Positions 1-32,017 of a stretch of 35,441 bases of DNA are shown here, piece after piece. Each line of letters starts with the position of its first letter. Position 1 is the stretch's first letter. This DNA is from Pseudomonadales bacterium (lineage in GTDB: Bacteria > Pseudomonadota > Gammaproteobacteria > Pseudomonadales > JANQMK01), in contig JANQMK010000062.1 of assembly GCA_028280085.1 (NCBI GenBank), forward strand, positions 1-35,441. The letters are read 5' to 3'. The translations under genes were made by a program, and so were the position numbers. The notes beneath the pieces are model-generated. The model saw only the letters and a program-made list of their open reading frames with translations. It was not told the DNA's origin and did no database searches.

Positions 1-620
1 CGACTTGGTACTTCTTTTTAGTACTCTTTAACTTTTCGTACGCATTACTCTTAGATTTATTTTTATAATGAGTGAGTAAACTAATTGGGTACGCTTCTTT
101 GGCTCCGCCCAAACTTTATTTAACACTGCATCCTTTCGTTAATACTTGTCTTGTTACTTGCTTGTCTTGTAAATTTCGTGCGACTTGCTCTTAGTTACAC
201 CTTGTATCTATCCACCAGGTAACGGGTACCGCCAAGATCGATATTTAAGCGGAAATTTCCTTAGACTACATAATAATTGTATCACTGATATCAGCTGCCC
301 TCGACAGACCAAATCCACAAAAAAACTGCGAAATAATTACGTTGCCAGACTATCAGTTGAGCCCTTACTAAACATAAAAAAATATGTGCTTTACAGGCCC
401 GCAAGTGATTGAATTTCACATGAAAAACACCTGCTAACCCATTAAAAATAATGCATTATTGGCTGTAATTGGCAACGTATAAAAGGAGCTAATCTAAGGT
501 CATTTTGAAGTGTTATCGACCATTACTTTCGATCGTATTAATCATATTACTGCAGATCCAAATTAATGGCGTTAATGTTTGAGCGGCCACATCTTCGTAG
601 CATGTCAATGCAACAAAAAC

Positions 621-1274
621 TTAATAGGCCGTCGGCAGCTTACCATGAATAACTATATAGCGCTTATCAAAACTGATATAATTACCTGTAGTCAAATCTT
701 TTAGTATACGTGCCACCATCTCGCGGGATGCACCAACCCGATCTGCAATATCTTGTTGTGTGAGTCGTTCAGAAACGATGTATTCGTCATTACCTCTCGG
801 CTCAGCCAATTCAGTTATTACCTTAACTAAACGCCCATAAACATCCTTGAGAGCGAGACTCTTAACGTTCTCTGTGATGTGACGCACCTGACGCGTCAAG
901 TTCTTTAGCAAAGTAATAGAAATAGAAGGATAGCGTTCTAACAATTCTTTAAAGTCATTTTTATAAATAATGTAAAAGCTCGCATTATCTAGTGTCATTA
1001 CCGATGCTGATCGTTTCTCATCGTCCAATAAGGCTAACTCACCAAAGTACTCACCTTCTCCCATGGTGTTAATGACATACTCCTTGCCTCCTTTGTCGCT
1101 CAGAAAAACCTTTACCTTGCCACTTTCAATAACGTAAAGAGAATCAGCATTATCATCTTCATTGATAATAACAGTATTCTTGGAAAACTTACGATGAACG
1201 CTAACCTCTTCAATAGCCTGTATTTCTTCACCACCGAGACCCTCGAATAATTCCACTCCTGCAAATATAGACAT
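621..1274 (-). CDS. Crp/Fnr-family transcription factor (cyclic-nucleotide-binding domain + C-terminal HTH)
   Basis: 217-aa ORF. It has a cNMP-binding signature, FGELALLDDEKRSASV, with the Arg-Ser phosphate clamp. It also has a CRP-type recognition helix, QQDIADRVGASREMVARILKDL. Confidence 0.9.
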   Translation of the reverse strand: MSIFAGVELFEGLGGEEIQAIEEVSVHRKFSKNTVIINEDDNADSLYVIESGKVKVFLSDKGGKEYVINTMGEGEYFGELALLDDEKRSASVMTLDNASFYIIYKNDFKELLERYPSISITLLKNLTRQVRHITENVKSLALKDVYGRLVKVITELAEPRGNDEYIVSERLTQQDIADRVGASREMVARILKDLTTGNYISFDKRYIVIHGKLPTAY

Positions 1275-1620
1275 AGCGATTTTTCACCTTCAATTCAATT
1301 GTTAAATCACAATAACAGACATTGACCTCAGTTGCAGTAAACTGTTCCTCGCGCCCACATCAGCCATACACCTGAAACCCAAGCCGCCGCAAAAGCAGAC
1401 AATGGCAGAGTTAGCAAAGACTTAGAACAATAATAGACCAATTCAACAGTGATGTTACAACTGTCAACACAACAAGGCTATAATGGAACGCGAACAAAAC
1501 CAATAATACGCTGTCTCAGCTAATAAATTAGCCGCTTAAATAGTAAATATTGTCATTTTTCTTTGAATGCCGGACAATTAGACTACTTACTAACCCAGAT
1601 TATACTGATTAAAGTCAAAC

Positions 1621-3147
1621 ATGGACTCCAGCCAATTTCTGCATGAGATTCAACGCCAAAGTCAAAAAATCTGTAAATTAATCACACAGCTTGTTTCCGC
1701 CATCCATGGCTGTTCTTCGATTGACTTCGCTGACAACGTGAGCCGGCTTTCCCAAAGCGCTATCGAACTCACCGACTTTACCAAACAATTAAATCAAATG
1801 CAGGCACACAGCGAAGAACAATTAAGGGATGTGCGACATGATTTCAGAAACCTATTAAACGCCGTCACCGGCTATTGCGAAATGGTTGATGAAGATTGTG
1901 AAGGTCACCCCGCCATTCAACCGCACACCACGGCACTACTAGAAGCGACAAGTAAAGCACAACACCTATTTCAAACAACAACTCAAACACCACAACATTA
2001 TTCCGCCACATTTTTCAATGACGACAAACCGTTTGCTGAAATACCAACAGAACCCGGTCATCTGTTGGTGATTGACGACAAACAAAGTAATCGTGATATT
2101 CTCAGTCACTATTTGCAAAAACTTGGTCATAGTGTATCGGCTGTCAGTTCAGCTAAACAAGCGCTGGAAGCCTTGAACCAACAGAGCTTCGATCTCATAT
2201 TACTGGACCTCATTATGCCGGAAACCGACGGTTTTCAGCTGCTAAAACAACTAAAAGCAGACGAAGATAAGCGGGCAATTCCCGTAATTATGGTGTCTGG
2301 TATTGATGATACTGAAGGTGTTATTCAATGTATTAAAGCAGGTGCAGAAGACTATCTTACCAAACCATTTAATCCCATATTATTGGAAGCTCGACTTAGC
2401 GCCTGCCTTGAGCGCAAGCGCTGGCATGATCGAGAAATTTCAATTCTTAACGAGTTAGAAAAGCGCAACCGATTTATTCGTCATACCTTCGGCCAGTACC
2501 TAACAGATGAAATCGTGAATAACCTATTAGAAAACCCTGATGGCCTCGATTTAGGCGGCGCCTATCGGCAAGTAACGATTTTAATGACAGATATACGTAA
2601 TTTTACCAATCTGTGTGAACAAATGAAGCCAGAAAGAGTCGTAAAATTACTTAATAATTATTTGGGCGTCATGACCAACGTTATTATGGATTATCGCGGC
2701 ACGGTAGACGAATTCATCGGTGACGCCATCCTAGCCCTATTTGGCGCACCGGTTCAACGTGAAGACGATACTGATCGCGCCGTTGCCTGCGCTATAGCGA
2801 TGCAGCTAGCCATGGAAGAAGTTAATAGTAAGAATCGACAAGATGGTTTACCGGAAATCAGTATGGGCATTGGCATTAATACCGGCGAAGTAATCGCTGG
2901 CAATATTGGTTCAGATAAAAGACTAAAATACGCTGTTGTCGGCAGGCATGTAAATCTAACTGCACGCGTCGAAAGCTTCACCAAGGGCGGTCAAATTCTC
3001 GCTTCACAGTATACCATCGACGCTATGACTTCACCTTTAACTATTACTCACAGTGAATCTGTGCAGTTGAAGGGTATACAAGATAAAGTCCTTATCCATA
3101 ATATCCAAGGTATATCCGGCAACTATAATCTAGCGCTAAAAGATTAA
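1621..3147 (+). CDS. Multidomain signalling protein: N-terminal H-box/DHp-like segment, REC receiver, class III nucleotidyl cyclase
   Basis: 508-aa ORF. H-box-like VRHDFRNLLNAVTGYCEM (His73). REC motifs: LVIDDKQ, DLILLDLIMPETDG (Asp196), VIMVSG, YLTKPF. Cyclase motifs: VTILMTDIRNFT (Asp324), EFIGDAILALFGAP (Asp368), GINTGEVIAGNIG, VGRHVNLTARVES (Asn445, Arg449). Confidence 0.9.
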   Translation: MDSSQFLHEIQRQSQKICKLITQLVSAIHGCSSIDFADNVSRLSQSAIELTDFTKQLNQMQAHSEEQLRDVRHDFRNLLNAVTGYCEMVDEDCEGHPAIQPHTTALLEATSKAQHLFQTTTQTPQHYSATFFNDDKPFAEIPTEPGHLLVIDDKQSNRDILSHYLQKLGHSVSAVSSAKQALEALNQQSFDLILLDLIMPETDGFQLLKQLKADEDKRAIPVIMVSGIDDTEGVIQCIKAGAEDYLTKPFNPILLEARLSACLERKRWHDREISILNELEKRNRFIRHTFGQYLTDEIVNNLLENPDGLDLGGAYRQVTILMTDIRNFTNLCEQMKPERVVKLLNNYLGVMTNVIMDYRGTVDEFIGDAILALFGAPVQREDDTDRAVACAIAMQLAMEEVNSKNRQDGLPEISMGIGINTGEVIAGNIGSDKRLKYAVVGRHVNLTARVESFTKGGQILASQYTIDAMTSPLTITHSESVQLKGIQDKVLIHNIQGISGNYNLALKD

Positions 3148-3162
3148 AAGGATGTGATTGTC

Positions 3163-3528
3163 ATGGCAGTTATATTATTAGTTGAAGATAATGAAATGAA
3201 CCGAGACATGCTTTCTCGGCGCTTAACACGCAAGAGCCACACGGTATTACTTGCGCAAGATGGTCAACAAGCAGTTGACATGGCTATCGAGCACAAACCT
3301 GACATTATCCTTATGGACATGAGTTTGCCAATCAAGGACGGCTGGGAGGCAAGCAAAGAAATCAAGGCCAATCCCTCGACAGAGGACATTCCCATTATTG
3401 CTTTAACCGCCCATGCAATGGAGGGAGATAAGCAAAATGCAATTGAAGCAGGCTGTGTCGACTATGATACGAAACCCATTGATCTGCCAAGACTATTAAA
3501 GAAAATAGATCACTGGACCACAACCTAA
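3163..3528 (+). CDS. Single-domain CheY-like response regulator
   Basis: Motifs VEDNEMNRD, IILMDMSLPIKDGWE, IIALTAHA and DYDTKP. It starts 16 nt after the cyclase stop, so an operon is likely. The start is ambiguous: ATG 3163 follows AAAGGA, and GTG 3154 is the alternative used by the ORF track. Confidence 0.88.
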   Translation: MAVILLVEDNEMNRDMLSRRLTRKSHTVLLAQDGQQAVDMAIEHKPDIILMDMSLPIKDGWEASKEIKANPSTEDIPIIALTAHAMEGDKQNAIEAGCVDYDTKPIDLPRLLKKIDHWTTT

Positions 3529-3632
3529 TATAACTTAGCCTATATGCTAATTTATCTCATACTATGATTTACCCAGATGTTCATTGACCAAGCCAAACAC
3601 TATCAATTAGCTTAAAACAACTTGCAATATTT

Positions 3633-5084
3633 ATGTCCGTACCAATAAAGCAATATTCATCAACAAAGCAGCAACGTGTGAAACGGCATACGATATTGGT
3701 ACTGATTATGATCGCTATGCAGGGCTGTGCAACAACCAGCGTTTTTATTGCCTATCCAGGCAAGGTTCAACCCTTGCTAAATAAAGTCAACCAGAATGGC
3801 ACTATTGATTTACCACCAGTATCAACAAGTAGTGGACCAGATGAAGTTCTTGACTACTTAGAAAAGGGGCGTTTGGCGCAAATTACTCAACAGCCCGAAC
3901 TCAGCAAAAGCTATTTCAAACTCGCTATTGCTTACTTTAATCAGTTATCCCATCAAGCGCAAATTAGTGCGACTGATATTGGCCAACAAAGTACGTCTTT
4001 GTTATTAAACGACAATATCATTAATTACCAGATACCAGGCTATGAACAACTCTATGTGCATCATTTCCAAGCGCTTAATTATTTATTTGAAGGTAATCTC
4101 GAAGCAGCCGGTGTAGAAGTTAGGCGAGCCAATCAGGTACAAAAGAAAATAAAGACGCAATATGAAGCCGACCTCAGTAAAGCTCGTCAACGCGCCGAAG
4201 AACTGCCCATCAACATTGGCCCAGCAGAAGATCAGGTTAACGCTCTTTTTAGTACTACAGAGCATGAATCAAATAAAATAAAAAGCTCATTTGATAATGG
4301 CTATGCTTTTTACGCCTCCGCACTAATCTATGAGCTGAGAGGAGAGTATGACCACGCTTATATTGATTATAAAAAGGCGCTAGCTATAAACCCCTCAAAC
4401 CAAATATTATTGCGCGATGTACAGCGTGTAGCGCGACAACTGGGGCGCCATGAAGATCTGGCAAGAATAACGGCTGAAGTAGGTCCACCCATGTTAAAAG
4501 AATCAAATGATGCGGAAATTATCATCTTTTACGAAGCTGGCTTCGTGCCGGCAAAAACAGATGTTACTATTCCAATCACCAATTACCATGATCGCGCAGT
4601 TGTTATTTCTTTTCCTATGTACCAACAGCCTCTTTCCAACCATTATCCACTTGAACTCTACACTGAGTTGAGTCCTCCCACCATTTCATACCCTCTAACT
4701 AATACCTACATCTTAGCAAGTACTGCGCTCAAGGAGCGCAGTATCAGTACTATAGTACGACAAGTCGGCCGCGCAATTACCAAAGTTGAACTGACCCATA
4801 AATCAGAGAAGGCTGGCGGTAACGTCGGGGCTGTATTAGCGAGTATTTATAATCTTGTCTCCGAACAAGCCGACCTGAGAAGCTGGCTCTCGCTACCTTA
4901 TCGAGTAGATGTTATCCGAAAAACGATTAAACCTGGGACAAAAGAGGTTGTTTTTAGACCACAGGCAAGTACCCTCTCGAAAACAGTTCCCCTAAATATC
5001 GAACCAAACACGGTTACTGTAATCCAACTAACGAATACGGGAAACCAATTATTTTCACGCACGACCACCTACGATCGCCAGTAG
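3633..5084 (+). CDS. TPR-containing lipoprotein of unknown function
   Basis: 483-aa ORF. Signal peptide with lipobox (LIMIAMQGC). TPR-like segment YAFYASALIYELRGEYDHAYIDYKKALAINPSN. It is the first gene of a tight three-lipoprotein cluster. Confidence 0.75.
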   Translation: MSVPIKQYSSTKQQRVKRHTILVLIMIAMQGCATTSVFIAYPGKVQPLLNKVNQNGTIDLPPVSTSSGPDEVLDYLEKGRLAQITQQPELSKSYFKLAIAYFNQLSHQAQISATDIGQQSTSLLLNDNIINYQIPGYEQLYVHHFQALNYLFEGNLEAAGVEVRRANQVQKKIKTQYEADLSKARQRAEELPINIGPAEDQVNALFSTTEHESNKIKSSFDNGYAFYASALIYELRGEYDHAYIDYKKALAINPSNQILLRDVQRVARQLGRHEDLARITAEVGPPMLKESNDAEIIIFYEAGFVPAKTDVTIPITNYHDRAVVISFPMYQQPLSNHYPLELYTELSPPTISYPLTNTYILASTALKERSISTIVRQVGRAITKVELTHKSEKAGGNVGAVLASIYNLVSEQADLRSWLSLPYRVDVIRKTIKPGTKEVVFRPQASTLSKTVPLNIEPNTVTVIQLTNTGNQLFSRTTTYDRQ

Positions 5085-5105
5085 AGAACAATGGGAGAAA
5101 TGGAT

Positions 5106-5564
5106 ATGAAAAAAATGACTAATAGACTTGCCCTGGCTGCGTTAGTCTTAATGACAGCCTCACTCACATTGATTGGCTGCCAAAACAATGCCGGACTTCA
5201 AGTACAGCATGATCCCTATAACATAGAAACCAATAACCAAGTGACCGATTACAAATTTGGCAATAAACTGATTGTCTCACAGATCATAGGTGATATTAGT
5301 GGAGGTTTACACAATGGTAATGTCGTTATTAAAAATACCACTAAATCGAGCATGAACTTGCAATATCAATTTACCTGGTACGACCAAAATAATCGCGAAA
5401 TGGACATTGACGGAAGTGCTTGGACTCCCATTACCGTCTATGCTAAGAACCAAAAGACCCTCAGTAGTATCGCACCGAATCCAACAGCAACTCAGTTCCG
5501 TGTTAGTATTCGAGAGTTAAATGCAACTAAAGTTTTTAAAACGAACTTGCTGGGCATAAAATAG
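5106..5564 (+). CDS. YcfL-like (DUF1425-type) small lipoprotein
   Basis: Signal peptide with lipobox LTLIGC and a beta-rich ~130-aa mature part. It sits immediately upstream of an LpoB-like gene, as ycfL does in E. coli. Start chosen at ATG 5106, 8 nt after GGGAG; the ORF track starts at 5091. Confidence 0.6.
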   Translation: MKKMTNRLALAALVLMTASLTLIGCQNNAGLQVQHDPYNIETNNQVTDYKFGNKLIVSQIIGDISGGLHNGNVVIKNTTKSSMNLQYQFTWYDQNNREMDIDGSAWTPITVYAKNQKTLSSIAPNPTATQFRVSIRELNATKVFKTNLLGIK

Positions 5565-5615
5565 TTCGTGTTAACAAGACACTTAGCAACACCCAACAAA
5601 ACGAGAGGATTACCC

Positions 5616-6209
5616 ATGAAAATCTTTACCCTGATCACCCTATCTTTTATTTTGGCTTTAACTGCTGGGTGCGCCAGTAAAGTCCAATACGGTGATGCCC
5701 AAGCCGTAGAAACAGTTGATATAACTTTTGGCTCAACCGACTTGCAACAAATCGCGGGGAAAATGGCAGATTCACTCCTCGCATTTCCACCGATGGTTAA
5801 AATTACTCAACAAAAGCGACCGACACTCTTAGTCGATCGTATAAAAAACAAAACCACTGAACATATTGATACCGAATCTGTTACTGATACCATCGTCAAT
5901 AAACTACTGCGGTCAGGCCAATATCGTTTTGTCGACATGTCCAACATTGACGCAATTCGCAAACAGTTGAACTATCAAGCAACGGGAGGCTTAGTTGATC
6001 CGGCTAAGGCTGCGAAAATCGGCAAACAAACGGGCGCCGAATATATGATTTACGGCAATTTAAGCTCAATCGAAAAATCTAACAAAAAGGAAAAGGATGT
6101 CTATTATAAATTTACCCTTAAACTAGTCAATCTAGAATCCGGTATTCTTGAATGGCAGGATGAAAAGGAAATTCGCAAAAACGTTTCACGCAGTCTGTTT
6201 GGTCTTTGA
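5616..6209 (+). CDS. lpoB: LpoB-like penicillin-binding-protein activator family lipoprotein
   Basis: Lipobox LTAGC. The pattern PTLLVDRIKNKT...YRFVD...GAEYMIYGNL...LKLVNLESGILEW matches the LpoB/COG3417 fold pattern. Start set at ATG 5616 after GAGAGGA; the ORF track's GTG 5568 adds an unlikely N-terminal extension. Confidence 0.7.
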   Translation: MKIFTLITLSFILALTAGCASKVQYGDAQAVETVDITFGSTDLQQIAGKMADSLLAFPPMVKITQQKRPTLLVDRIKNKTTEHIDTESVTDTIVNKLLRSGQYRFVDMSNIDAIRKQLNYQATGGLVDPAKAAKIGKQTGAEYMIYGNLSSIEKSNKKEKDVYYKFTLKLVNLESGILEWQDEKEIRKNVSRSLFGL

Positions 6210-6581: not shown

Positions 6582-7439
6582 ATGTATACATTCAAATTCG
6601 ATAAAGGGTCAAATACAGCTGTATTACTATCTAAGGTAATCAATCTGCTTTCTCTTAAAAATCAAGCTATTAAAAATACACTGGACTACAATATATCGTT
6701 CAATGTTATTCCAGTTAAAGGGCTCGACCCAGCTTTTGAAAACTATCGTATCTTACACCTCTCTGACCTCCATATTGATGCCATCGCCGACAACGCGACG
6801 AAATTATTCAACACCATCAAAAAGCTCAGCTATAACTGTTGCGTGTTAACGGGCGACTACAAGTTTGATGCTTACAATTCAAATAACGATTGCTGCAAAA
6901 CATTAATGAAGACACTAATTGACAAGATCGATAAACAAGATGGTGTTTTCGTCGTCTCAGGCAATCATGACCCTGATGAAGTTATTGACTACATAGCCAA
7001 TACTAATGCCCATATGCTTAACAATAGTGCCCATAGCATTATAAAAAATAACGCTCGACTCAACATCATTGGCGTCATTGATCCAGTCCGCCGACAAACC
7101 CATGATTTGGCTAAAGCTACTCATTACGTCACTCGGGCAGATACGAATATTCTATTAGTGCACTCGCCTGAGCTAGTTTATGACGCCGTACAATACCCTG
7201 TCGATATCTATTTGTGCGGCCATACCCATGGGGGACAAATGTGCCTACCAGGTAACATCCCCGTGCAGAACAGGCCTGGTTGCGAGCGGCAGTTTATATC
7301 AGGTTGCTGGCAATATCAGCATATCACTGGCTATACCTCCCGCGGTGTCGGCACAACAGGTGTAACTGCTCGATTTTACTGCCCACCAGAGATAACTGTG
7401 CACACCCTAAGACGCTTCAAAGAGCCAAAATATCATTAA
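6582..7439 (+). CDS. Calcineurin-like metallophosphoesterase (YaeI/CpdA-like motif set)
   Basis: 285-aa ORF with the ordered motifs LSDLH, GDY, GNHD, VHSP and GHTHGGQ. Confidence 0.85.
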   Translation: MYTFKFDKGSNTAVLLSKVINLLSLKNQAIKNTLDYNISFNVIPVKGLDPAFENYRILHLSDLHIDAIADNATKLFNTIKKLSYNCCVLTGDYKFDAYNSNNDCCKTLMKTLIDKIDKQDGVFVVSGNHDPDEVIDYIANTNAHMLNNSAHSIIKNNARLNIIGVIDPVRRQTHDLAKATHYVTRADTNILLVHSPELVYDAVQYPVDIYLCGHTHGGQMCLPGNIPVQNRPGCERQFISGCWQYQHITGYTSRGVGTTGVTARFYCPPEITVHTLRRFKEPKYH

Positions 7440-7778: not shown

Positions 7779-8207
7779 ATGATTCTCATTATTTTTTCTA
7801 ACATATTTCTGGTGAGCGTCTGCGTGCTCATTCACTTTGAAATGCTGCTCATGCTATCCAAGATTATCCCTAAATTATCTGTACTACACCGATTAAGAAT
7901 TGTTTTTGGTATTTTCGGTTCTCTATGCGCACACGTTGTTGAGGTGTGGATTTTTGCACTGGGCTATTACGTGTTAATACAATCAGGTCACTACGGAGAA
8001 CTAAATGGCGAATTTCACGGCACGCTGCTCGACTGCGTTTACTTTTCTTTTACTACCTATACCTCCTTAGGGCTCGGAGATATCTACCCAACCGGACCAC
8101 TTCGCTTTCTTGTCGGCATTGAATCACTGACTGGCCTTGCATTAATCACCTGGACCGCATCATTTATGTTTCTTGAAATGCAGAAATTTTGGAACTCTAA
8201 ACACTGA
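7779..8207 (+). CDS. Minimal two-TM pore-loop ion channel (Ion_trans_2-like), no regulatory domain
   Basis: 142-aa ORF with hydrophobic helices flanking the pore-loop signature FTTYTSLGLGDIYP (a T-x-G-x-G-D filter). Confidence 0.72.
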   Translation: MILIIFSNIFLVSVCVLIHFEMLLMLSKIIPKLSVLHRLRIVFGIFGSLCAHVVEVWIFALGYYVLIQSGHYGELNGEFHGTLLDCVYFSFTTYTSLGLGDIYPTGPLRFLVGIESLTGLALITWTASFMFLEMQKFWNSKH

Positions 8208-8571: not shown

Positions 8572-9627
8572 GTGGATATGGAAGTCATATCATCTAATGA
8601 ACAACAACGTCTTATTCAAGCCGCACAAGGTTTAAAAGTTACGCTTACGCGTATGAAGAAGTTGAATATTCCTCCCATTCCTGAAAACTATACCGTGTGG
8701 TACGAATATGCCATGGGTACAATTCTTGAACTCAATGAGGCAATAGACGATCTACTTAATAAAGGTGTCTCGTTTTCGGCTAAAATCAACCACGATTTAT
8801 ACACTAAATATGTGGCTGATCGTCCCGTTAAGATGATTGATCAAATTCAACAGCAAACGGAGCAATTAGTTACTAACCTGCTAAACAACATTAAAAACGC
8901 TGACGAAAGCAATAGCCAGTTCTCGAAAACACTCGAACATTGCGATAGAGAATTAAAACAAAATCCCAGCCTCGATTCACTGTCCGACCTAGTAAACTGT
9001 ATTCTGGAAGAATCCAACAAAATGAAGGAATCTAACCGCGCCATGGAGGATTCTCTCTCTAGCATGAGCGATGAAGTAAAAGAACTGCGTGGACACATGG
9101 AGAAGTTAAACAATGTCGTTATGAAAGATCCATTAACCGGCATTGCCAATCGACGCGCATTTGATGAGAAGCTAGCAGAACTTTGTAGTAGATTCATTGA
9201 TACACAGAATAAATTCAGTATCATTATCATCGATATAGACTATTTCAAAAAGTTCAATGACACCCATGGGCATATGGTAGGCGATAAGGTTCTTACCTTT
9301 GTCGCCAACATTATGGATAAGCAAATTGGCGAAGGCGGTACGTTAGCGCGTTTTGGCGGTGAGGAATTCGTATGTCTGTTACCGGACACAGAGTATAGCC
9401 AAGCAAAAGAAATTGCAGAACGGCTACGTACTAAGGTATCCGAAAAGGCCCTCACCTCTGGTTCCGAGAAGAAAAAGCTCGGCACCATTACCATCTCTCT
9501 CGGCGTTGCCATGATACAAGCTGAAGATGATGATGTCTCGTTGTTACAGCGAGCAGACCAGATGTTATACCAAGCTAAACGTCAAGGTCGAAACCGGGTT
9601 GTTGGAGAGAACGACAATTTAAGCTAA
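8572..9627 (+). CDS. Diguanylate cyclase (GGDEF domain) with coiled-coil/unknown N-terminal sensor region
   Basis: 351-aa ORF. DPLTGIANRRAF, DIDYFKKFNDTHGH, RFGGEEFVCLL (active-site GGEEF) and LYQAKRQGRNRV. No RxxD I-site is visible immediately upstream of GGEEF (sequence QIGEGGTLA). Confidence 0.9.
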   Translation: MDMEVISSNEQQRLIQAAQGLKVTLTRMKKLNIPPIPENYTVWYEYAMGTILELNEAIDDLLNKGVSFSAKINHDLYTKYVADRPVKMIDQIQQQTEQLVTNLLNNIKNADESNSQFSKTLEHCDRELKQNPSLDSLSDLVNCILEESNKMKESNRAMEDSLSSMSDEVKELRGHMEKLNNVVMKDPLTGIANRRAFDEKLAELCSRFIDTQNKFSIIIIDIDYFKKFNDTHGHMVGDKVLTFVANIMDKQIGEGGTLARFGGEEFVCLLPDTEYSQAKEIAERLRTKVSEKALTSGSEKKKLGTITISLGVAMIQAEDDDVSLLQRADQMLYQAKRQGRNRVVGENDNLS

Positions 9628-9676: not shown

Positions 9677-10363
9677 CTAAACGGCATTACCAAACTCAAC
9701 AATCTGTGAGTAAACATAGCCGTAAAGCGCAATATAATTTTCTTCCGACACCTCTACAAACTGTATGCCATAGTTGTAGCTAAACTCATCGTCACCACGT
9801 GCCCCAGATTTGTCATCAGTTTTTAGATCAAGTATGGCACGGACAATGGCTTCCAAACTGACAACTCGTGTTATACCACCGAGCGAGACCGTGGCTACGA
9901 CCGTTATCCTGTCGCCAATTTCAGCAATTTCTTCAGTACAACCCAATTTCGCACCATCCGTACTCAAATCAATAATGCTGCCAATAGCCTTTTCAGAAGA
10001 CTTATTATCCGGTTGATAAATAACAGAACATCTCAAGTTGACCGCAACGCGGCGCGAATTTCTCACAGAATCCGCGGCAATATCTTCTGGATAAGCTAAA
10101 TGAAGATAAGGAAACGGATGGGTGCAAACACCGACAATAGTCGTAGGAAAAGCACAAACCGTAGTATTAGAAAATAGACGAACATTCACCTGCTGCTTGA
10201 GGCGAACCAGAACAAGACGGCCTTTACTTTTAGGCGTGTGCACAATCAAACTTTTGCCACTAGCATAGCCTATTACCCGACTCACATAGCGATCTTCGGC
10301 GCGGTTAACAAACTCGAGCTGAACCGCAGATCCTGGCAATAGGTTTAAATCTGACAACTTCAT
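9677..10363 (-). CDS. YcgR-like PilZ-domain c-di-GMP receptor
   Basis: 228-aa ORF with the PilZ motifs RNSRRVAV (RxxxR) and DLSTDGAKL (D-x-S-x-x-G), preceded by a PilZN-sized N-terminal domain. Confidence 0.8.
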   Translation of the reverse strand: MKLSDLNLLPGSAVQLEFVNRAEDRYVSRVIGYASGKSLIVHTPKSKGRLVLVRLKQQVNVRLFSNTTVCAFPTTIVGVCTHPFPYLHLAYPEDIAADSVRNSRRVAVNLRCSVIYQPDNKSSEKAIGSIIDLSTDGAKLGCTEEIAEIGDRITVVATVSLGGITRVVSLEAIVRAILDLKTDDKSGARGDDEFSYNYGIQFVEVSEENYIALYGYVYSQIVEFGNAV

Positions 10364-10720: not shown

Positions 10721-13012
10721 TTATACCGTAGAATTAAAGTTATGGCGTATTCTCTTACCAGCCATAAAATCCATAAAGCCCAATAGATCATCTATTATGT
10801 TTAAATCGGGTAAATTCTTTTTGGTAAATGGCAAACCATCATAACGTGCTAACGACTCAGCATCTTTAAGCAGATTTTTGAAATACTCCCTATCTTTTTC
10901 TTGCATTGATACTTCCCAAACTGCTAAACCACCGGTACATTCAACACCAGATATAAGACCTTCGCACCATTCAGCCAAAGGAATATAGCCATATCCTTGC
11001 TGTTCAATATTTAAATCACAAGGAATAAAACTATCGCCAGCATCGGCAGCAATCATAATGTTATTATAATACTTAAAGAGAGTTTTTAATTGCTCGTTCC
11101 AAAGTGGATCATCTTCACTGGGTAGCGTACCTGCAAATGCCACTTGAAGCCACTCCGAAGGTAACGGTAGCTGGGGCGCACAAATTGTTGCGTACATCAA
11201 ACCATGAATTTTGTGAAAATTATAAGTGTTTTCAGGCACAGTATTACTTACTAAAAAGTTCTCTATCGCAACCTCTTGAGCGACCGTGATAGTATATTCG
11301 CTAGCGTCCATATCAGCGTCAATGACATGGCTACCACTGTCCAAATCAGTATCATCCATATCGTCTTTGTTAACAAAGTTTGCTAACGAATCGCTCGCAA
11401 TAGCCACCATCAGCGGAATGTCGAATATCTGTTTCTTCTCATCAAGTGCTAACGCTAAAACAAGAAAGTCTTCTATTTCGATATTACTCTTTTCGGTACA
11501 GTGCTGAGCCCAGAGAGTCAATATAACAAATCGACTTAGCCACTTATCTCTAACAGGTTCCATCAATGTTTGGCAGAGGTACTGTTCTAACGGTAAATCA
11601 TTTTCCCCTAGTCGCAACGCATCTAACACCTTTCCCAACGTTGCAGTAGTTACATCATTTTGTTCAAACCAGCCTTGTGTAAAACGTTCATTGCCAAGCC
11701 ATTTTGCGCTATTTTTTTGTCGCTTATCGACATAGCTATCCGTTAATTTATCGGCATACTTAGCCCGCCATGTTCTTATAAGCGCGCTTTCATTCAGCGC
11801 CTGTGGTTGCCAGCATTCAATACCTAACAGTTCAACCCATCGCAAAACATCTGGACTGATGCCATGGCCAGACTCAACATTGATGGCAATAAAGTGTGGC
11901 AACAGTAATTCAATATAAGAAGGAGTCACATCTATAGTAAATACTTCATTGTCAATACGAGCGATAATATTCTCGCATTCTGATCGTTCGGTTAATGTTG
12001 TCACCCAGGTATCAATGACACCAAATCGCTCCTTAAACACAGAGCCGGCTAGGCGATACATCTCTCCCTCTTTAAATACGGTTACAATAGTTTGGGCTCC
12101 CGCACCATCAATTGATGACGCCACAACTTTTTCAACGCTCACCCCATCGGCTACTACAGAAGACTCACAGCCAATGCCCATTTTACGCAATCGCTTCACC
12201 ACCAGATCTAGCCGCCGACGCTCACTCGCTTGCAGCCAGTTTCTTATTGTAATCAAACGCCGCAAACTTCTAGAACTCAAGCGTTTCGCATAGAAACCCA
12301 ATTCAAATAGATGTAGCACGATGGAGCGAATTTCTTCCTGTGGGTGCAGTAGGAACAAAACAGCGGCTTCATGCAAAATAGGATTGTCAGCTTCTAAAAA
12401 GCTGGCTATCATTTCTTCTCCCACACTGGTTGGCAAGTGAGTCAGCTGATTGAAAAACAGCTCATAGACTTCATATTCATTTTCAATACCATAATCTATC
12501 AGCATTTCTTGCAACGTATCAGACAGCACATCTTGACTGGCATGGTAATCAACCTGTTCTATGCGCGACTCAAATATCTTAGTTTGCCATACACGATCTG
12601 CTGCGAGAAATTCCTCAGTTGGCACGAGTCCCATTTCTGTAATACTATGCAACAGCCAATGTAACACTTCTGCGTTAATACCCGGGTCAAGCATATACTT
12701 TGTCAAGGTATCTTGTAGATGCAACCAACCATCTAATGCACGCTGATGTTTCTCTCTTACCGCGATGACAAGCTCTTGCAGGCAGCAGTAAACAATATCT
12801 TCAAACGCACTTTGCAACCATTCTGTCGATTCGAGTTCGCTTAAATCTAAACGGACTGCAGGCGCGACGAGAGATAACAATAACTCTACCGGATCACGCC
12901 AGCCCAAAGCGCTTAATTCCTGCCAATCAAGCTGACCAGTATCTTCTTCAAGAAACTCTGCAACGGTTTTCAGCAGCTCCAGCGCTCTGATTTGATTGTG
13001 GGTTAAATTCAT
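10721..13012 (-). CDS. Large (763 aa) acidic hypothetical protein; C-terminal region resembles UPF0149 (YgfB/YecA-type) domain
   Basis: Long uninterrupted ORF. The C-terminus, IHGLMYATICAPQLPLPSEWL...LAEWCEGLISGV, looks like UPF0149. I recognised no domain in the first ~570 aa. Confidence 0.6.
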   Translation of the reverse strand: MNLTHNQIRALELLKTVAEFLEEDTGQLDWQELSALGWRDPVELLLSLVAPAVRLDLSELESTEWLQSAFEDIVYCCLQELVIAVREKHQRALDGWLHLQDTLTKYMLDPGINAEVLHWLLHSITEMGLVPTEEFLAADRVWQTKIFESRIEQVDYHASQDVLSDTLQEMLIDYGIENEYEVYELFFNQLTHLPTSVGEEMIASFLEADNPILHEAAVLFLLHPQEEIRSIVLHLFELGFYAKRLSSRSLRRLITIRNWLQASERRRLDLVVKRLRKMGIGCESSVVADGVSVEKVVASSIDGAGAQTIVTVFKEGEMYRLAGSVFKERFGVIDTWVTTLTERSECENIIARIDNEVFTIDVTPSYIELLLPHFIAINVESGHGISPDVLRWVELLGIECWQPQALNESALIRTWRAKYADKLTDSYVDKRQKNSAKWLGNERFTQGWFEQNDVTTATLGKVLDALRLGENDLPLEQYLCQTLMEPVRDKWLSRFVILTLWAQHCTEKSNIEIEDFLVLALALDEKKQIFDIPLMVAIASDSLANFVNKDDMDDTDLDSGSHVIDADMDASEYTITVAQEVAIENFLVSNTVPENTYNFHKIHGLMYATICAPQLPLPSEWLQVAFAGTLPSEDDPLWNEQLKTLFKYYNNIMIAADAGDSFIPCDLNIEQQGYGYIPLAEWCEGLISGVECTGGLAVWEVSMQEKDREYFKNLLKDAESLARYDGLPFTKKNLPDLNIIDDLLGFMDFMAGKRIRHNFNSTV

Positions 13013-31132: not shown

Positions 31133-32017
31133 ATGAAAGCTATTCTAGAAGTACAAGAACTTTGCAAATATTACGATAAGACTATTGCCGTAAATAATAT
31201 CAGTTTCACCGTTAGTGAAGGTATTTGTTTAGGACTTTTAGGCCCTAATGGCGCAGGTAAAACGACAACCGTCGAGATGATCGAAGGCATAAAAGAGCCC
31301 TCGTCTGGCGACATTCTCTATCGCGGAGAAAAAAGAGATAAAACTTTTTCTCAGGTTGCCGGTATTCAATTTCAATCAACAGCGATGTTTAGCTTTTTAA
31401 CGGTGAAAGAAACCCTAAAACTATTCCACAGTTTATACGCCCATACATCATCCATTGAACAACTCATTGAAACCTGCGATCTCCATGATTTTATTGATAA
31501 ATACACCACAAAAATATCCGGCGGCCAAAAACAACGTCTATTATTAGCACTGGCACTGATCAACAACCCTGATATCGTTTTTTTAGATGAACCAACGACT
31601 GGCTTAGATCCACAATCAAGGCGCCATTTTTGGCAAGTTATCAAACAAATAAAACAGCAAGGTAAAACTATTCTGTTGACTACACACTATATGGAAGAAG
31701 CGGAATACCTCTGCGATCAACTCCTCATCATTGATAAAGGCCAAGTTATTGCCGAAGGTTCTCCAGAACATTTACTAAAAAGCCATTTTAACTATAACTA
31801 TATTTGCCTTGACGCCTCACTCAAAACACAGACACAATTAGAAGAGTTAGGGGTAAAATTTGTCATGGGAGATCAAATAGAGATTTACTCTAACAATATA
31901 GAATTCACGCTGCAGCAACTTATCCAACACAATATTAATCTCAACTCACTGCGTGTACGCAGCCCCACGTTAGAAGACCTTTTTATTAAATTGACAGGTT
32001 CAACACTCAGAGATTAA
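31133..32017 (+). CDS. ABC transporter ATP-binding protein (ABC-2 type)
   Basis: Walker A GPNGAGKTT, signature ISGGQKQR, Walker B IVFLDEPTTGLD and an H-loop in TTHYMEEA. Confidence 0.92.
   Translation: MKAILEVQELCKYYDKTIAVNNISFTVSEGICLGLLGPNGAGKTTTVEMIEGIKEPSSGDILYRGEKRDKTFSQVAGIQFQSTAMFSFLTVKETLKLFHSLYAHTSSIEQLIETCDLHDFIDKYTTKISGGQKQRLLLALALINNPDIVFLDEPTTGLDPQSRRHFWQVIKQIKQQGKTILLTTHYMEEAEYLCDQLLIIDKGQVIAEGSPEHLLKSHFNYNYICLDASLKTQTQLEELGVKFVMGDQIEIYSNNIEFTLQQLIQHNINLNSLRVRSPTLEDLFIKLTGSTLRD

Follow-up and report, generated by a model that had tools for sequence, protein, structure and literature searches.

A receiver-linked, Cya2-type class III cyclase and a divergently encoded Crp-like protein: a predicted cyclic GMP module in uncultured Pseudomonadales

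Introduction

Which cyclic nucleotide is made by a class III cyclase that carries Glu and Ala at its two base-specifying positions, and is that nucleotide read by the Crp-like protein encoded next to it? The question is raised by a locus near the left end of a 35,441-nucleotide stretch of DNA (hereafter the window; G+C content about 42%), positions 1 to 35,441 of contig JANQMK010000062.1 from a Pseudomonadales bacterium (assembly GCA_028280085.1). At this locus, a crp-like gene is divergent from an operon that encodes a response-regulator cyclase and a CheY-like single-domain receiver (Table 1). A first-pass annotation, made from the letters of the window alone, had described these three open reading frames (ORFs) and had proposed that the cyclase product may be something other than cyclic AMP (cAMP), possibly cyclic GMP (cGMP), that the Crp-like protein is its receptor, and that phosphorylation gates the enzyme. 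All three ORFs are borne out, with coordinates and Pfam domains that match the description, and translation confirms each of the cyclase residues it named (D196, D324, E364, D368, A438, N445, and R449).

Established cases of cGMP signalling in bacteria are very few (Rhodospirillum centenum, Xanthomonas, and Cya2 of Synechocystis). The best explanation of the present locus appears to be a two-component-controlled cGMP module in which a receiver-gated guanylate cyclase of the Cya2 type is paired with a dedicated Crp-like receptor. We regard this as probable, though well short of secure, on the basis of the domain anatomy, the residue identities, the homology to Cya2, and the conserved gene neighbourhood, all of which the analysis shows.

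Results

The catalytic domain and its relationship to Cya2

Residues 315-495 of the cyclase match the Pfam family Guanylate_cyc (PF00211) at 109.2 bits, against a cut-off of 21.9, and the best match to a solved structure by sequence is Cya2 of Synechocystis sp. PCC 6803 (PDB 2W01; E = 1.4e-61), the only bacterial enzyme proven to be a guanylate cyclase whose structure has been solved. The alignment with Cya2 runs over 197 residues with zero gaps, and 102 of the 197 (52%) are identical. The catalytic domain also matches 6FHT, an engineered Cya2 fusion that carries E488K; the next best matches are the adenylate cyclases CyaB and CyaC, far behind Cya2 at 32-34% identity. An AlphaFold model built on 65 homologues (mean pLDDT 88.8) superimposes on Cya2 in Foldseek with a TM score of 0.94 and a root-mean-square deviation of 1.9 Å, and only the engineered 6FHT ranked higher. 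Since the Cya2 alignment is ungapped and 52% identical, the mapping of functional residues is unambiguous: D324, R326, D368, N445, R449, and K484 correspond to Cya2 D448, R450, D492, N569, R573, and K608, respectively, with R326 and K484 in the role of phosphate binding. The catalytically competent look that the first-pass annotation ascribed to the enzyme is upheld by this correspondence.

Adenylate cyclases of class III carry Lys at the first base-specifying position and Asp or Thr at the second. In the window cyclase, Glu and Ala, not Lys and Asp/Thr, occupy these positions: the ungapped alignment places Glu364 and Ala438 opposite E488 and G562 of Cya2, which puts what had been a motif-based guess on firmer ground. 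K436 and Y437, which precede Ala438, are invariant in the family, and Cya2 likewise has K-Y at this point. Cya2 has a strong preference for GTP, with the Glu-Gly pair determining specificity (PMC6005667), and the single substitution E488K turns it into an adenylate cyclase (PMC5995499). In the structure of RhGC, the contact of Glu with guanine N1/N2 is the chief determinant of base choice, while the second residue is variable and works by shape (PMC7384201).

A homologue search returned 5,899 matches at E <= 1e-10, and residues were tallied from the aligned best 120. The pairs found at positions 364 and 438 are E/G (100 homologues), E/A (10), Q/G (6), and E/S (4); Glu is at the first position in 114 of 120 homologues and Gly at the second in 100 of 120. 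D324, D368, N445, and R449 are kept in all 120, as is D196 of the receiver. The window cyclase lies within a small E/A clade, in which its nearest relatives are 62-67% identical to it. Glu/Ala had been put forward as a notable signature. The residues are correct, but there is nothing exotic about them: published work lists Glu/Ala among the pairs that specify GTP (PMC6592433), so the signature is not a new one, and by these tallies the window Glu/Ala is a minor variant of a mostly E/G family. Taken with the identity and fold similarity to Cya2, these residues lend computational support to the earlier suggestion that the enzyme may make something other than cAMP, possibly cGMP.

Conservation of the cyclase-receptor pair

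The gene pair is kept across many uncultured gammaproteobacteria of marine and groundwater origin. In the relative whose cyclase is 67% identical, which comes from a groundwater metagenome, the crp-like gene is divergent from the cyclase gene, which is followed by genes for the receiver, a lipoprotein, a DUF1425 protein, and LpoB. Oceanicoccus sagamiensis has a crp-like gene divergent from genes for a cyclase, a receiver, and a hybrid HAMP kinase, and the same four genes occur in three more lineages that were reached from Crp-like homologues. One E/A relative has kept the receiver and kinase genes and has no crp-like gene at the locus. A metagenome scan with the Crp-like profile as the only query returned 80 loci, of which those with about 55% identity or more and enough upstream DNA were taken as informative. 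A divergent cyclase gene, a single receiver gene, and a HAMP histidine kinase gene are found together in 22 of the 24 informative loci; in four further loci the cyclase gene is truncated by the contig end. When the metagenome loci are combined with the earlier loci, the window, and the one E/A relative without a crp-like gene, the linked cyclases are E/G in 26 cases and E/A in three, with one truncated, and H73 and D196 are present in every sequence. That an E/G or E/A cyclase adjoins the crp-like gene in nearly all of the informative loci, and that the same neighbours recur in four additional lineages, supports, at the level of gene order, the suggestion that the Crp-like protein is the receptor.

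A single receiver gene follows the cyclase gene in every complete related locus. The kinase of the relatives has the domain order HAMP-HisKA-HATPase, is sometimes hybrid, and is encoded directly after the small receiver. A contig scan that used the full-length cyclase as query returned only receiver-domain matches of 26-43% identity and was of no use for synteny. One of just two linkage exceptions among the close homologues is L097 (positions 1-6000), where a Crp-like homologue of 63% identity has 6 kb of upstream DNA without a Cya2-like cyclase; the contig holds many long overlapping ORFs.

More distant Crp-like homologues, at 47-58% identity, show a divergent pairing with cyclases of about 750 residues (L123:3460-5826 and L132:3540-5771, both on the minus strand), and equivalent cyclase ORFs are present in L131, L134, L135, L137, L139, L148, L157, and L164. 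The CHASE2 domain, which is part of Cya2's own architecture, was confirmed by Pfam on L123 and L132 and assigned in the other eight by strong similarity to the L132 protein. The base-specifying positions of these CHASE2-cyclases hold Asp and Arg (VSDIIGDA ... EYRAVGD.VN), and the metal-binding Asp residues, the Asn, and the Arg are retained. On sequence grounds, the Asp/Arg pair is neither adenylate cyclase-like nor guanylate cyclase-like.

The Crp-like protein

The Crp-like protein matches the Pfam families cNMP_binding (PF00027, 86.4 bits) and HTH_Crp_2 (PF13545, 41.4 bits). Its nucleotide-binding features comprise FGELAL, E79, R88-S89-A90-S91, and the C-helix pair I133-T134. Its identity to E. 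coli CAP is 33%. In the alignment, E79 and R88-S89 correspond to E72 and R82-S83 of CAP, and S183-R184-E185-x3-R189 corresponds to the CAP residues R180/E181/R185, so that both the Arg-Ser clamp and the SRExxxR recognition helix of the first-pass annotation hold up. The orthologous family is tight (60-91% identity). All of 46 orthologues have the helix-turn-helix LTQQDIADRVGASREMVARILKDL unchanged, and their phosphate-binding cassette (FGELALLD, R88, S/T89, A90, and S91) varies little or not at all. Against the canonical CRP equivalog of NCBIfam (NF008732), the protein scores 121.8 bits and falls below the cut-off of 266; judged by this profile, it is not a canonical cAMP-CRP orthologue.

At the position of CAP Thr127 the window protein has Ile133 and 90% of its orthologues have Leu, and at the position of CAP Ser128 all have Thr (Thr134 in the window). 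A T127L form of CRP is said to respond to cGMP. T127I and T127L are characteristic substitutions of CRP* alleles, in which nucleotide dependence is altered (PMC2743635; PMC11445507). The base-contacting Thr-Ser or Thr-Thr signature of the Gram-negative C-helix (PMC10187061) is absent from the window protein, whose pair is Ile-Thr, and from the 90% of orthologues whose pair is Leu-Thr. Ile or Leu at this position fits a changed base preference and would equally allow partial ligand independence.

The receiver, the linker, and the H-box domain

The internal receiver of the cyclase matches Response_reg at residues 149-259 (101.6 bits; Pfam). D153, D196, S226, Y245, and K248 are invariant among the 65 homologues, and D152 is nearly so. 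This complete set of receiver residues, together with the presence of a histidine kinase gene in the same operon of relatives, provides computational support for the proposed phosphorylation gating. In the AlphaFold model, the helix that leads from the receiver towards the catalytic domain is continuous, and the FGQY of residues 290-293 corresponds to FGRY in the family consensus, the motif of the cyclase transducer element described for Cya2 fusions (PMC5995499). The small receiver of the adjoining gene has its own phosphoacceptor set (E11-D12, D55 with codon at 3316-3318, T85, and K107) and also matches Response_reg in Pfam.

The N-terminal 120 residues form a predicted four-helix domain (helices 3-30, 34-59, 65-92, and 100-119; AlphaFold) with an H-box, R-H73-D-F-R-N77-LLNAVT-G84-Y85-C-E87, that matches both a phosphorylatable His and the E/D-x-x-T/N phosphatase motif. 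HisKA (PF00512) matches residues 65-99, the first helix only, at 24.4 bits, which is under its cut-off of 26.9; several homologues bear a precomputed PF00512 match, and the family profile of the domain aligns with the H-box of the HK853-type kinase 4JAS (E = 0.0015). H73, N77, G84, Y85, and E87 are invariant in the 65 homologues, and H73 is kept in 104 of the best 120 homologues and in 30 of the 30 sequences of the Crp-linked set. No HATPase_c domain follows the H-box in Pfam or in the model, in which residues 122-136 are a disordered linker that runs straight into the receiver; the domain is thus a DHp-like domain without a catalytic partner. Its features suggest that it could be a phosphate relay, a phosphatase (by way of its D-x-x-N motif), or a scaffold. 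An obligatory Hpt-like relay from a hybrid kinase, in a four-step phosphorelay, was considered and is weakened: 17 of the 19 kinases of the linked metagenome loci have no receiver domain, and because most partner kinases of the relatives are not hybrid, such an obligatory role is unlikely. Separately, some homologues (P0015, P0020, and P0055) have a Pfam Hpt domain in place of the DHp-like domain.

Four points go beyond the first-pass annotation: the H-box domain with H73, Ala448, Ile133 where CAP has Thr127, and the lack of a histidine kinase among the scanned ORFs.

The shared promoter region

Within the divergent intergenic region, alignment with the 67%-identity relative reveals a common block, GATGTTACAACTGT. 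This block overlaps a weak -35 hexamer of the cyclase operon (TTACAA, 1455-1460), and its opposite strand gives a promoter-like match for the crp-like gene, GTAACA-17-TATTAT; the block may be an operator or a promoter element. The perfect -10 box of the putative cyclase-operon promoter follows as GCTATAATG, 14 nt downstream of GATGTTACAACTGT in both the window and this relative, and a TATACT-like hexamer stands at the equivalent position in other loci. A Gibbs search of the intergenic regions found a GTGCaATAsTAACCC-like block 25-40 nt upstream of the crp-like start in many loci (the L104-L130 regions and the window), and it is likewise a candidate promoter element or operator. L104, L107, L108, L109, and L124 have TTTCCACA in common, which follows a GAAA-N6-8-TTTC-like symmetry located upstream of the -10 box of the cyclase. 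The canonical CRP operator, TGTGA-N6-TCACA with at most two mismatches, was rejected as the binding site: it occurs 12 times in the window where 15 occurrences are expected, and none of these falls in 1275-1620. A search for palindromes, which like the Gibbs search covered 22-29 crp-cyclase intergenic regions, found none in common. Scans of the window for Rfam families and tRNAs gave no matches, and a riboswitch in the leader of about 130 nt is therefore unsupported.

Neighbouring genes

In the window, the slot after the receiver gene that holds the HAMP kinase gene in other relatives is taken by genes for a TPR lipoprotein, a DUF1425/YcfL-like protein, and LpoB, so the kinase gene has been lost or moved from the locus in the lineage of the window. 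No terminator-like site was found on the plus strand in 3633-6209. A metallophosphoesterase gene further downstream (6582-7439) was considered as a linked cyclic nucleotide phosphodiesterase and rejected, its product being YaeI/LpxG-like and not CpdA. Beyond it lie genes for a small K+-channel-like protein, a GGDEF diguanylate cyclase, to whose N-terminal 170 residues no domain was assigned, and a YcgR-like PilZ protein. A further ORF of 763 residues has no Pfam or NCBIfam match in its N-terminal 580 residues. GroEL shares no more than 84% identity with its counterparts from Porticoccaceae, Pseudomonas, and Halioglobus, which places the source roughly, as an uncultured member of the Pseudomonadales/Cellvibrionales.

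In Cellvibrionales-type genomes, xseA-guaB-guaA lies on the far side of the crp-like gene. The presence of guaB and guaA (IMP dehydrogenase and GMP synthase) beside a predicted cGMP module may be plain synteny.

Table 1. Coordinates of the features of the window, and of the xseA-guaB-guaA flank in other loci.
Feature	Position	Strand	Details and basis
crp-like gene, 217 aa	621-1274	-	ORF listing, translation, Pfam
Divergent intergenic region, 346 nt	1275-1620
Block GATGTTACAACTGT, candidate operator or promoter element	1451-1464	+	Common to the window and the 67%-identity relative (alignment)
Perfect -10 box TATAAT, putative cyclase-operon promoter	1479-1484	+	Conserved in L001 as GCTATAATG
Response-regulator cyclase gene, 508 aa	1621-3147	+	DHp-like domain, receiver, helical linker with cyclase transducer element, Cya2-type catalytic domain
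N-terminal four-helix domain, residues 1-120	1621-1980	+	H73 codon 1837-1839
Receiver, residues 147-262	2059-2406	+	D152-D153 acidic pocket, D196 (codon 2206-2208), S226, Y245, K248
Long helix, residues 252-290 (39 residues), and transducer element F290-G-Q-Y293	2374-2532	+	AlphaFold, consensus
Class III catalytic domain, residues 314-498	2560-3114	+	Pfam, Cya2 alignment, fold match
Metal-binding D324	2590-2592	+
Glu364, first base-specifying residue	2710-2712	+	Codon GAA, in VDEFIGDA; Cya2 Glu488
Metal-binding D368	2722-2724	+
Ala438, second base-specifying residue	2932-2934	+	In KYAVVGRHVN; Cya2 Gly562
Transition-state N445	2953-2955	+
Ala448 (N445+3)	2962-2964	+	Cya2 Tyr572, Ma1120 Ala167
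Transition-state R449	2965-2967	+
CheY-like single-domain receiver gene, 124 aa	3154-3528	+	GTG start, 6 nt past the cyclase stop
TPR lipoprotein gene	3633-5084		After the receiver gene
DUF1425/YcfL-like gene	5091-5564		After the receiver gene
LpoB gene	5568-6209		After the receiver gene
Small K+-channel-like ORF	7779-8207
GGDEF diguanylate cyclase gene	8572-9627
YcgR-like PilZ protein gene	9677-10363
763-aa ORF	10721-13012	-	C-terminal UPF0149 (YgfB/YecA-like) domain
xseA-guaB-guaA flank, locus L085	848-3918
xseA-guaB-guaA flank, locus L088	8241-12611
xseA-guaB-guaA flank, locus L091	7620-12280
xseA-guaB-guaA flank, locus L093	7718-12449

Discussion

A predicted course of signalling

From the observations above we infer the product and the ligand, the direction in which regulation runs, and what the small receiver and the H-box domain do. 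A histidine kinase encoded outside the scanned ORFs of the window would phosphorylate Asp196 of the receiver, and the signal would pass along the long helix and through the transducer element to a homodimeric catalytic domain. There, Glu364 would pick guanine and the small Ala438 would give it space, so that GTP would be converted to 3',5'-cGMP. The co-transcribed small receiver probably acts as a competitor or a sink for phosphoryl groups, while the ATPase-less DHp-like domain might relay phosphate to the receiver or act as its phosphatase or as a dimerization scaffold. The cGMP would then be read by a dimer of the Crp-like protein through E79, the R88-S89 clamp, and the C-helix pair I133-T134, and this dimer would contact DNA through the invariant R184/E185/R189 recognition helix.

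Points that weigh against a cGMP module

Several observations count against this interpretation. On the side of the cyclase, Tyr572 of Cya2, which lines the guanine pocket, strongly boosts guanylate cyclase activity (PMC4215837), and the window has Ala448 in its place; of the best 120 homologues, 87 have Ala at this position and 33 have Ser, with no Tyr among them. Moreover, Ma1120 carrying K-to-E and D-to-G substitutions gained guanylate cyclase activity and was still a better adenylate cyclase by kcat/Km (PMC4215837), and the specificity residues alone are therefore no guarantee of the product. Ala in place of Tyr and the Ma1120 result together mean that the product is a prediction and that relaxed specificity is possible. 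The searchable literature holds no enzymatic or binding data for any family member.

On the side of the Crp-like protein, all of the phosphate and ribose contacts of cAMP-binding CAP are retained, and the family profile scores higher against CAP, Mycobacterium CRP, and GlxR (121-125 bits) than against Clr (7PZA; 101.5 bits), which responds to cGMP, so that a reading of cGMP, if real, would belong to a lineage separate from that of Clr. No sequence rule tells cGMP-activated from cAMP-activated CRPs (PMC10187061). Palindrome, Gibbs, and operator searches of the shared promoter region yielded no convincing Crp-like binding site. Finally, none of the 29 scanned ORFs of the window matches HisKA or HATPase_c; the scan took in every non-nested ORF of at least 100 residues up to position 32017, with short or nested ORFs and the four from 32044 onward outside it.

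Other explanations of the locus

The likeliest of the alternatives is that the cyclase is promiscuous or makes another product (both cAMP and cGMP, or the cyclic forms of IMP, CMP, or UMP), with the Crp-like protein being a dual or non-cGMP receptor in the manner of Clr. Discrimination may be loosened by Ala at the second position combined with the missing Cya2 Tyr, and the specificity of class III cyclases is set during catalysis and is sensitive to slight rearrangements (PMC7384201). Clr is activated by cAMP and cGMP alike (PMC10127613). Furthermore, the distant relatives of the Crp-like protein pair with Asp/Arg CHASE2-cyclases, and the receptor family is therefore not bound to one kind of cyclase. 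We nevertheless consider this explanation unlikely, if deserving of some weight, given that Glu364 and the invariant K436 and Y437 recreate the Cya2 pocket save for two small residues. The combinations E/G/S and E/A/A at the three determinants also resemble those of eukaryotic guanylate cyclases (E, then C/S/A), which have Ser at the third position, and none of the nearby effectors typical of pyrimidine-cyclase defence systems was seen.

It is also conceivable that the locus is an ordinary cAMP circuit, in which cAMP would be the main product in spite of Glu364 and would have in the Crp-like protein a second, specialised receptor. In public annotations, homologues bear names such as 'adenylate cyclase', 'cyclic AMP receptor protein', and 'CRP/FNR family cyclic AMP-dependent transcriptional regulator', but these names are automatic and derived from Pfam. 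Ala448 is an adenylate cyclase-like state at the third determinant, and the behaviour of substituted Ma1120 would agree with cAMP synthesis. Against this, the nearest characterised relative is a guanylate cyclase that required E488K to use ATP, Glu at the Lys position occurs in none of the characterised adenylate cyclases cited, and Glu is conserved in nearly all of the tallied homologues and in all of the linked cyclases. The full CAP phosphate clamp and a profile nearest to the cAMP-CRPs would suit a cAMP receptor, yet the protein scores too low for the CRP equivalog, and Ile or Leu stands at the point of CAP's contact with adenine N6. On balance, a cAMP circuit seems quite improbable.

Weakest of all, and in our view very doubtful, is the proposal that the Crp-like protein is no receptor for the cyclase product at all but a largely ligand-independent (CRP*-like) or otherwise-regulated repressor or activator of the adjoining operon only, while the cyclic nucleotide acts elsewhere. 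Although replacement of CAP Thr127 by Ile or Leu is a classic CRP* change that raises DNA affinity without cAMP, divergent regulator-operon pairs are commonplace, and the search for other cyclic nucleotide-binding proteins was confined to the window, the near-invariance of the phosphate-binding cassette in 46 orthologues would be unexpected had the ligand been lost, and the partnership with a cyclase holds across two cyclase architectures.

Comparison with known systems

The predicted cGMP module combines known parts: Cya2, the cGMP-CRP pair of CgrA, and two-component cyclases each provide a precedent. With Cya2, the window cyclase shares the Glu, the pair of metal-binding Asp residues, the Asn, the Arg, and the Lys, the K-Y before the second specificity residue, and a homodimeric class III organization with a transducer element. 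However, Cya2 is a membrane protein regulated through an extracellular CHASE2 domain, whereas the window cyclase has a cytoplasmic DHp-like domain and a receiver, with neither CHASE2 nor a membrane anchor; Gly562 and Tyr572 of Cya2 are replaced by Ala438 and Ala448. While no receptor for the cGMP of Cya2 was known as of a 2023 review (PMC10187061), the window cyclase has a conserved Crp-like neighbour.

In the gcyB-gcyC-cgrA system of Rhodospirillum centenum, which acts in cyst formation, guanylate cyclase genes likewise adjoin the gene of a CRP-family receptor. CgrA retains the nucleotide-binding signatures of CAP except that RS reads RT, as it also does in some orthologues of the window protein. 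Unlike the divergent pair of the window, this alphaproteobacterial system is a single operon, and CgrA belongs with Clr to CRP cluster G, whereas the window family is nearer to CAP; CgrA and the Gcy proteins were compared by description only. Clr of Sinorhizobium meliloti (7PZA/7PZB), another CRP-family protein, accepts syn cGMP through an E/R-S clamp and a Thr-Thr C-helix pair. Its partner cyclases have CHASE2 domains, like those paired with the distant relatives of the window Crp-like protein. Clr differs in its C-helix pair, which is Ile/Leu-Thr in the window family, and in its profile score, 101.5 bits as opposed to 125 for CAP. With E. coli CAP/CRP itself, the window protein shares the fold and domain order, and G71/E72, R82/S83, and R180/E181/R185 are conserved; it differs in having Ile133 for Thr127 and Thr134 for Ser128, and the promoter region of the window has no TGTGA-N6-TCACA site.

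Two systems resemble the regulatory half of the cyclase. CyaC of Spirulina/Anabaena (1WC0), whose catalytic domain is the third-best structural match at 33-34% identity, is a bacterial fusion of a class III cyclase with receiver and histidine-kinase modules, and its two-component regulation was reportedly described by Kasahara and Ohmori in 1999. In contrast to the window cyclase, CyaC has Lys/Thr residues, makes cAMP, and contains a complete kinase with an ATPase domain. The 2c-Cyclop proteins of Chlamydomonas and Volvox have the same order of histidine kinase, receiver, and guanylate cyclase, and mutagenesis showed that their guanylate cyclase activity needs phosphorylation of the receiver Asp (PMC6284317). 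They are, however, eukaryotic, each being one giant polypeptide that includes an opsin sensor as well as a complete kinase, whereas the window cyclase has no ATPase domain and its kinase is a separate gene or is absent from the locus.

Implications

The searchable literature holds no description of this module, and a prior listing in a survey of bacterial guanylate cyclases is possible. Its most interesting features are how widely and how tightly the cyclase and the receptor are paired, the H-box domain that lacks an ATPase, and the CRP*-like residue of the receptor. We suggest only tentatively a broader reading, namely that the locus represents a cGMP regulon, uncharacterised and widespread, of Pseudomonadales/Cellvibrionales that live uncultured in marine and groundwater habitats, in which the receptor may be a Crp of the CAP type, not the Clr/CgrA type, that turned cGMP-specific independently, via a natural equivalent of T127I/L, and the cyclase may have an internal, ATPase-less DHp phosphotransferase or phosphatase. 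Were this so, the wiring through an ATPase-less DHp domain would be new for any nucleotide cyclase, and the sister pairing with Asp/Arg CHASE2-cyclases would hint at another cyclic-nucleotide signal.

The locus offers a testable pair, a Cya2-type cyclase and a dedicated Crp-family receptor, with a defined input in the form of receiver phosphorylation. If the predicted cGMP module is real, it would extend cGMP-CRP signalling past the Alphaproteobacteria, and its natural variation (E/G/S and E/A/A in the cyclases, Ile or Leu at the CAP 127 position in the receptors) could be used to study base selectivity in cyclases and CRPs alike. Thousands of 'adenylate cyclase' and 'cAMP receptor' annotations would then need correcting.

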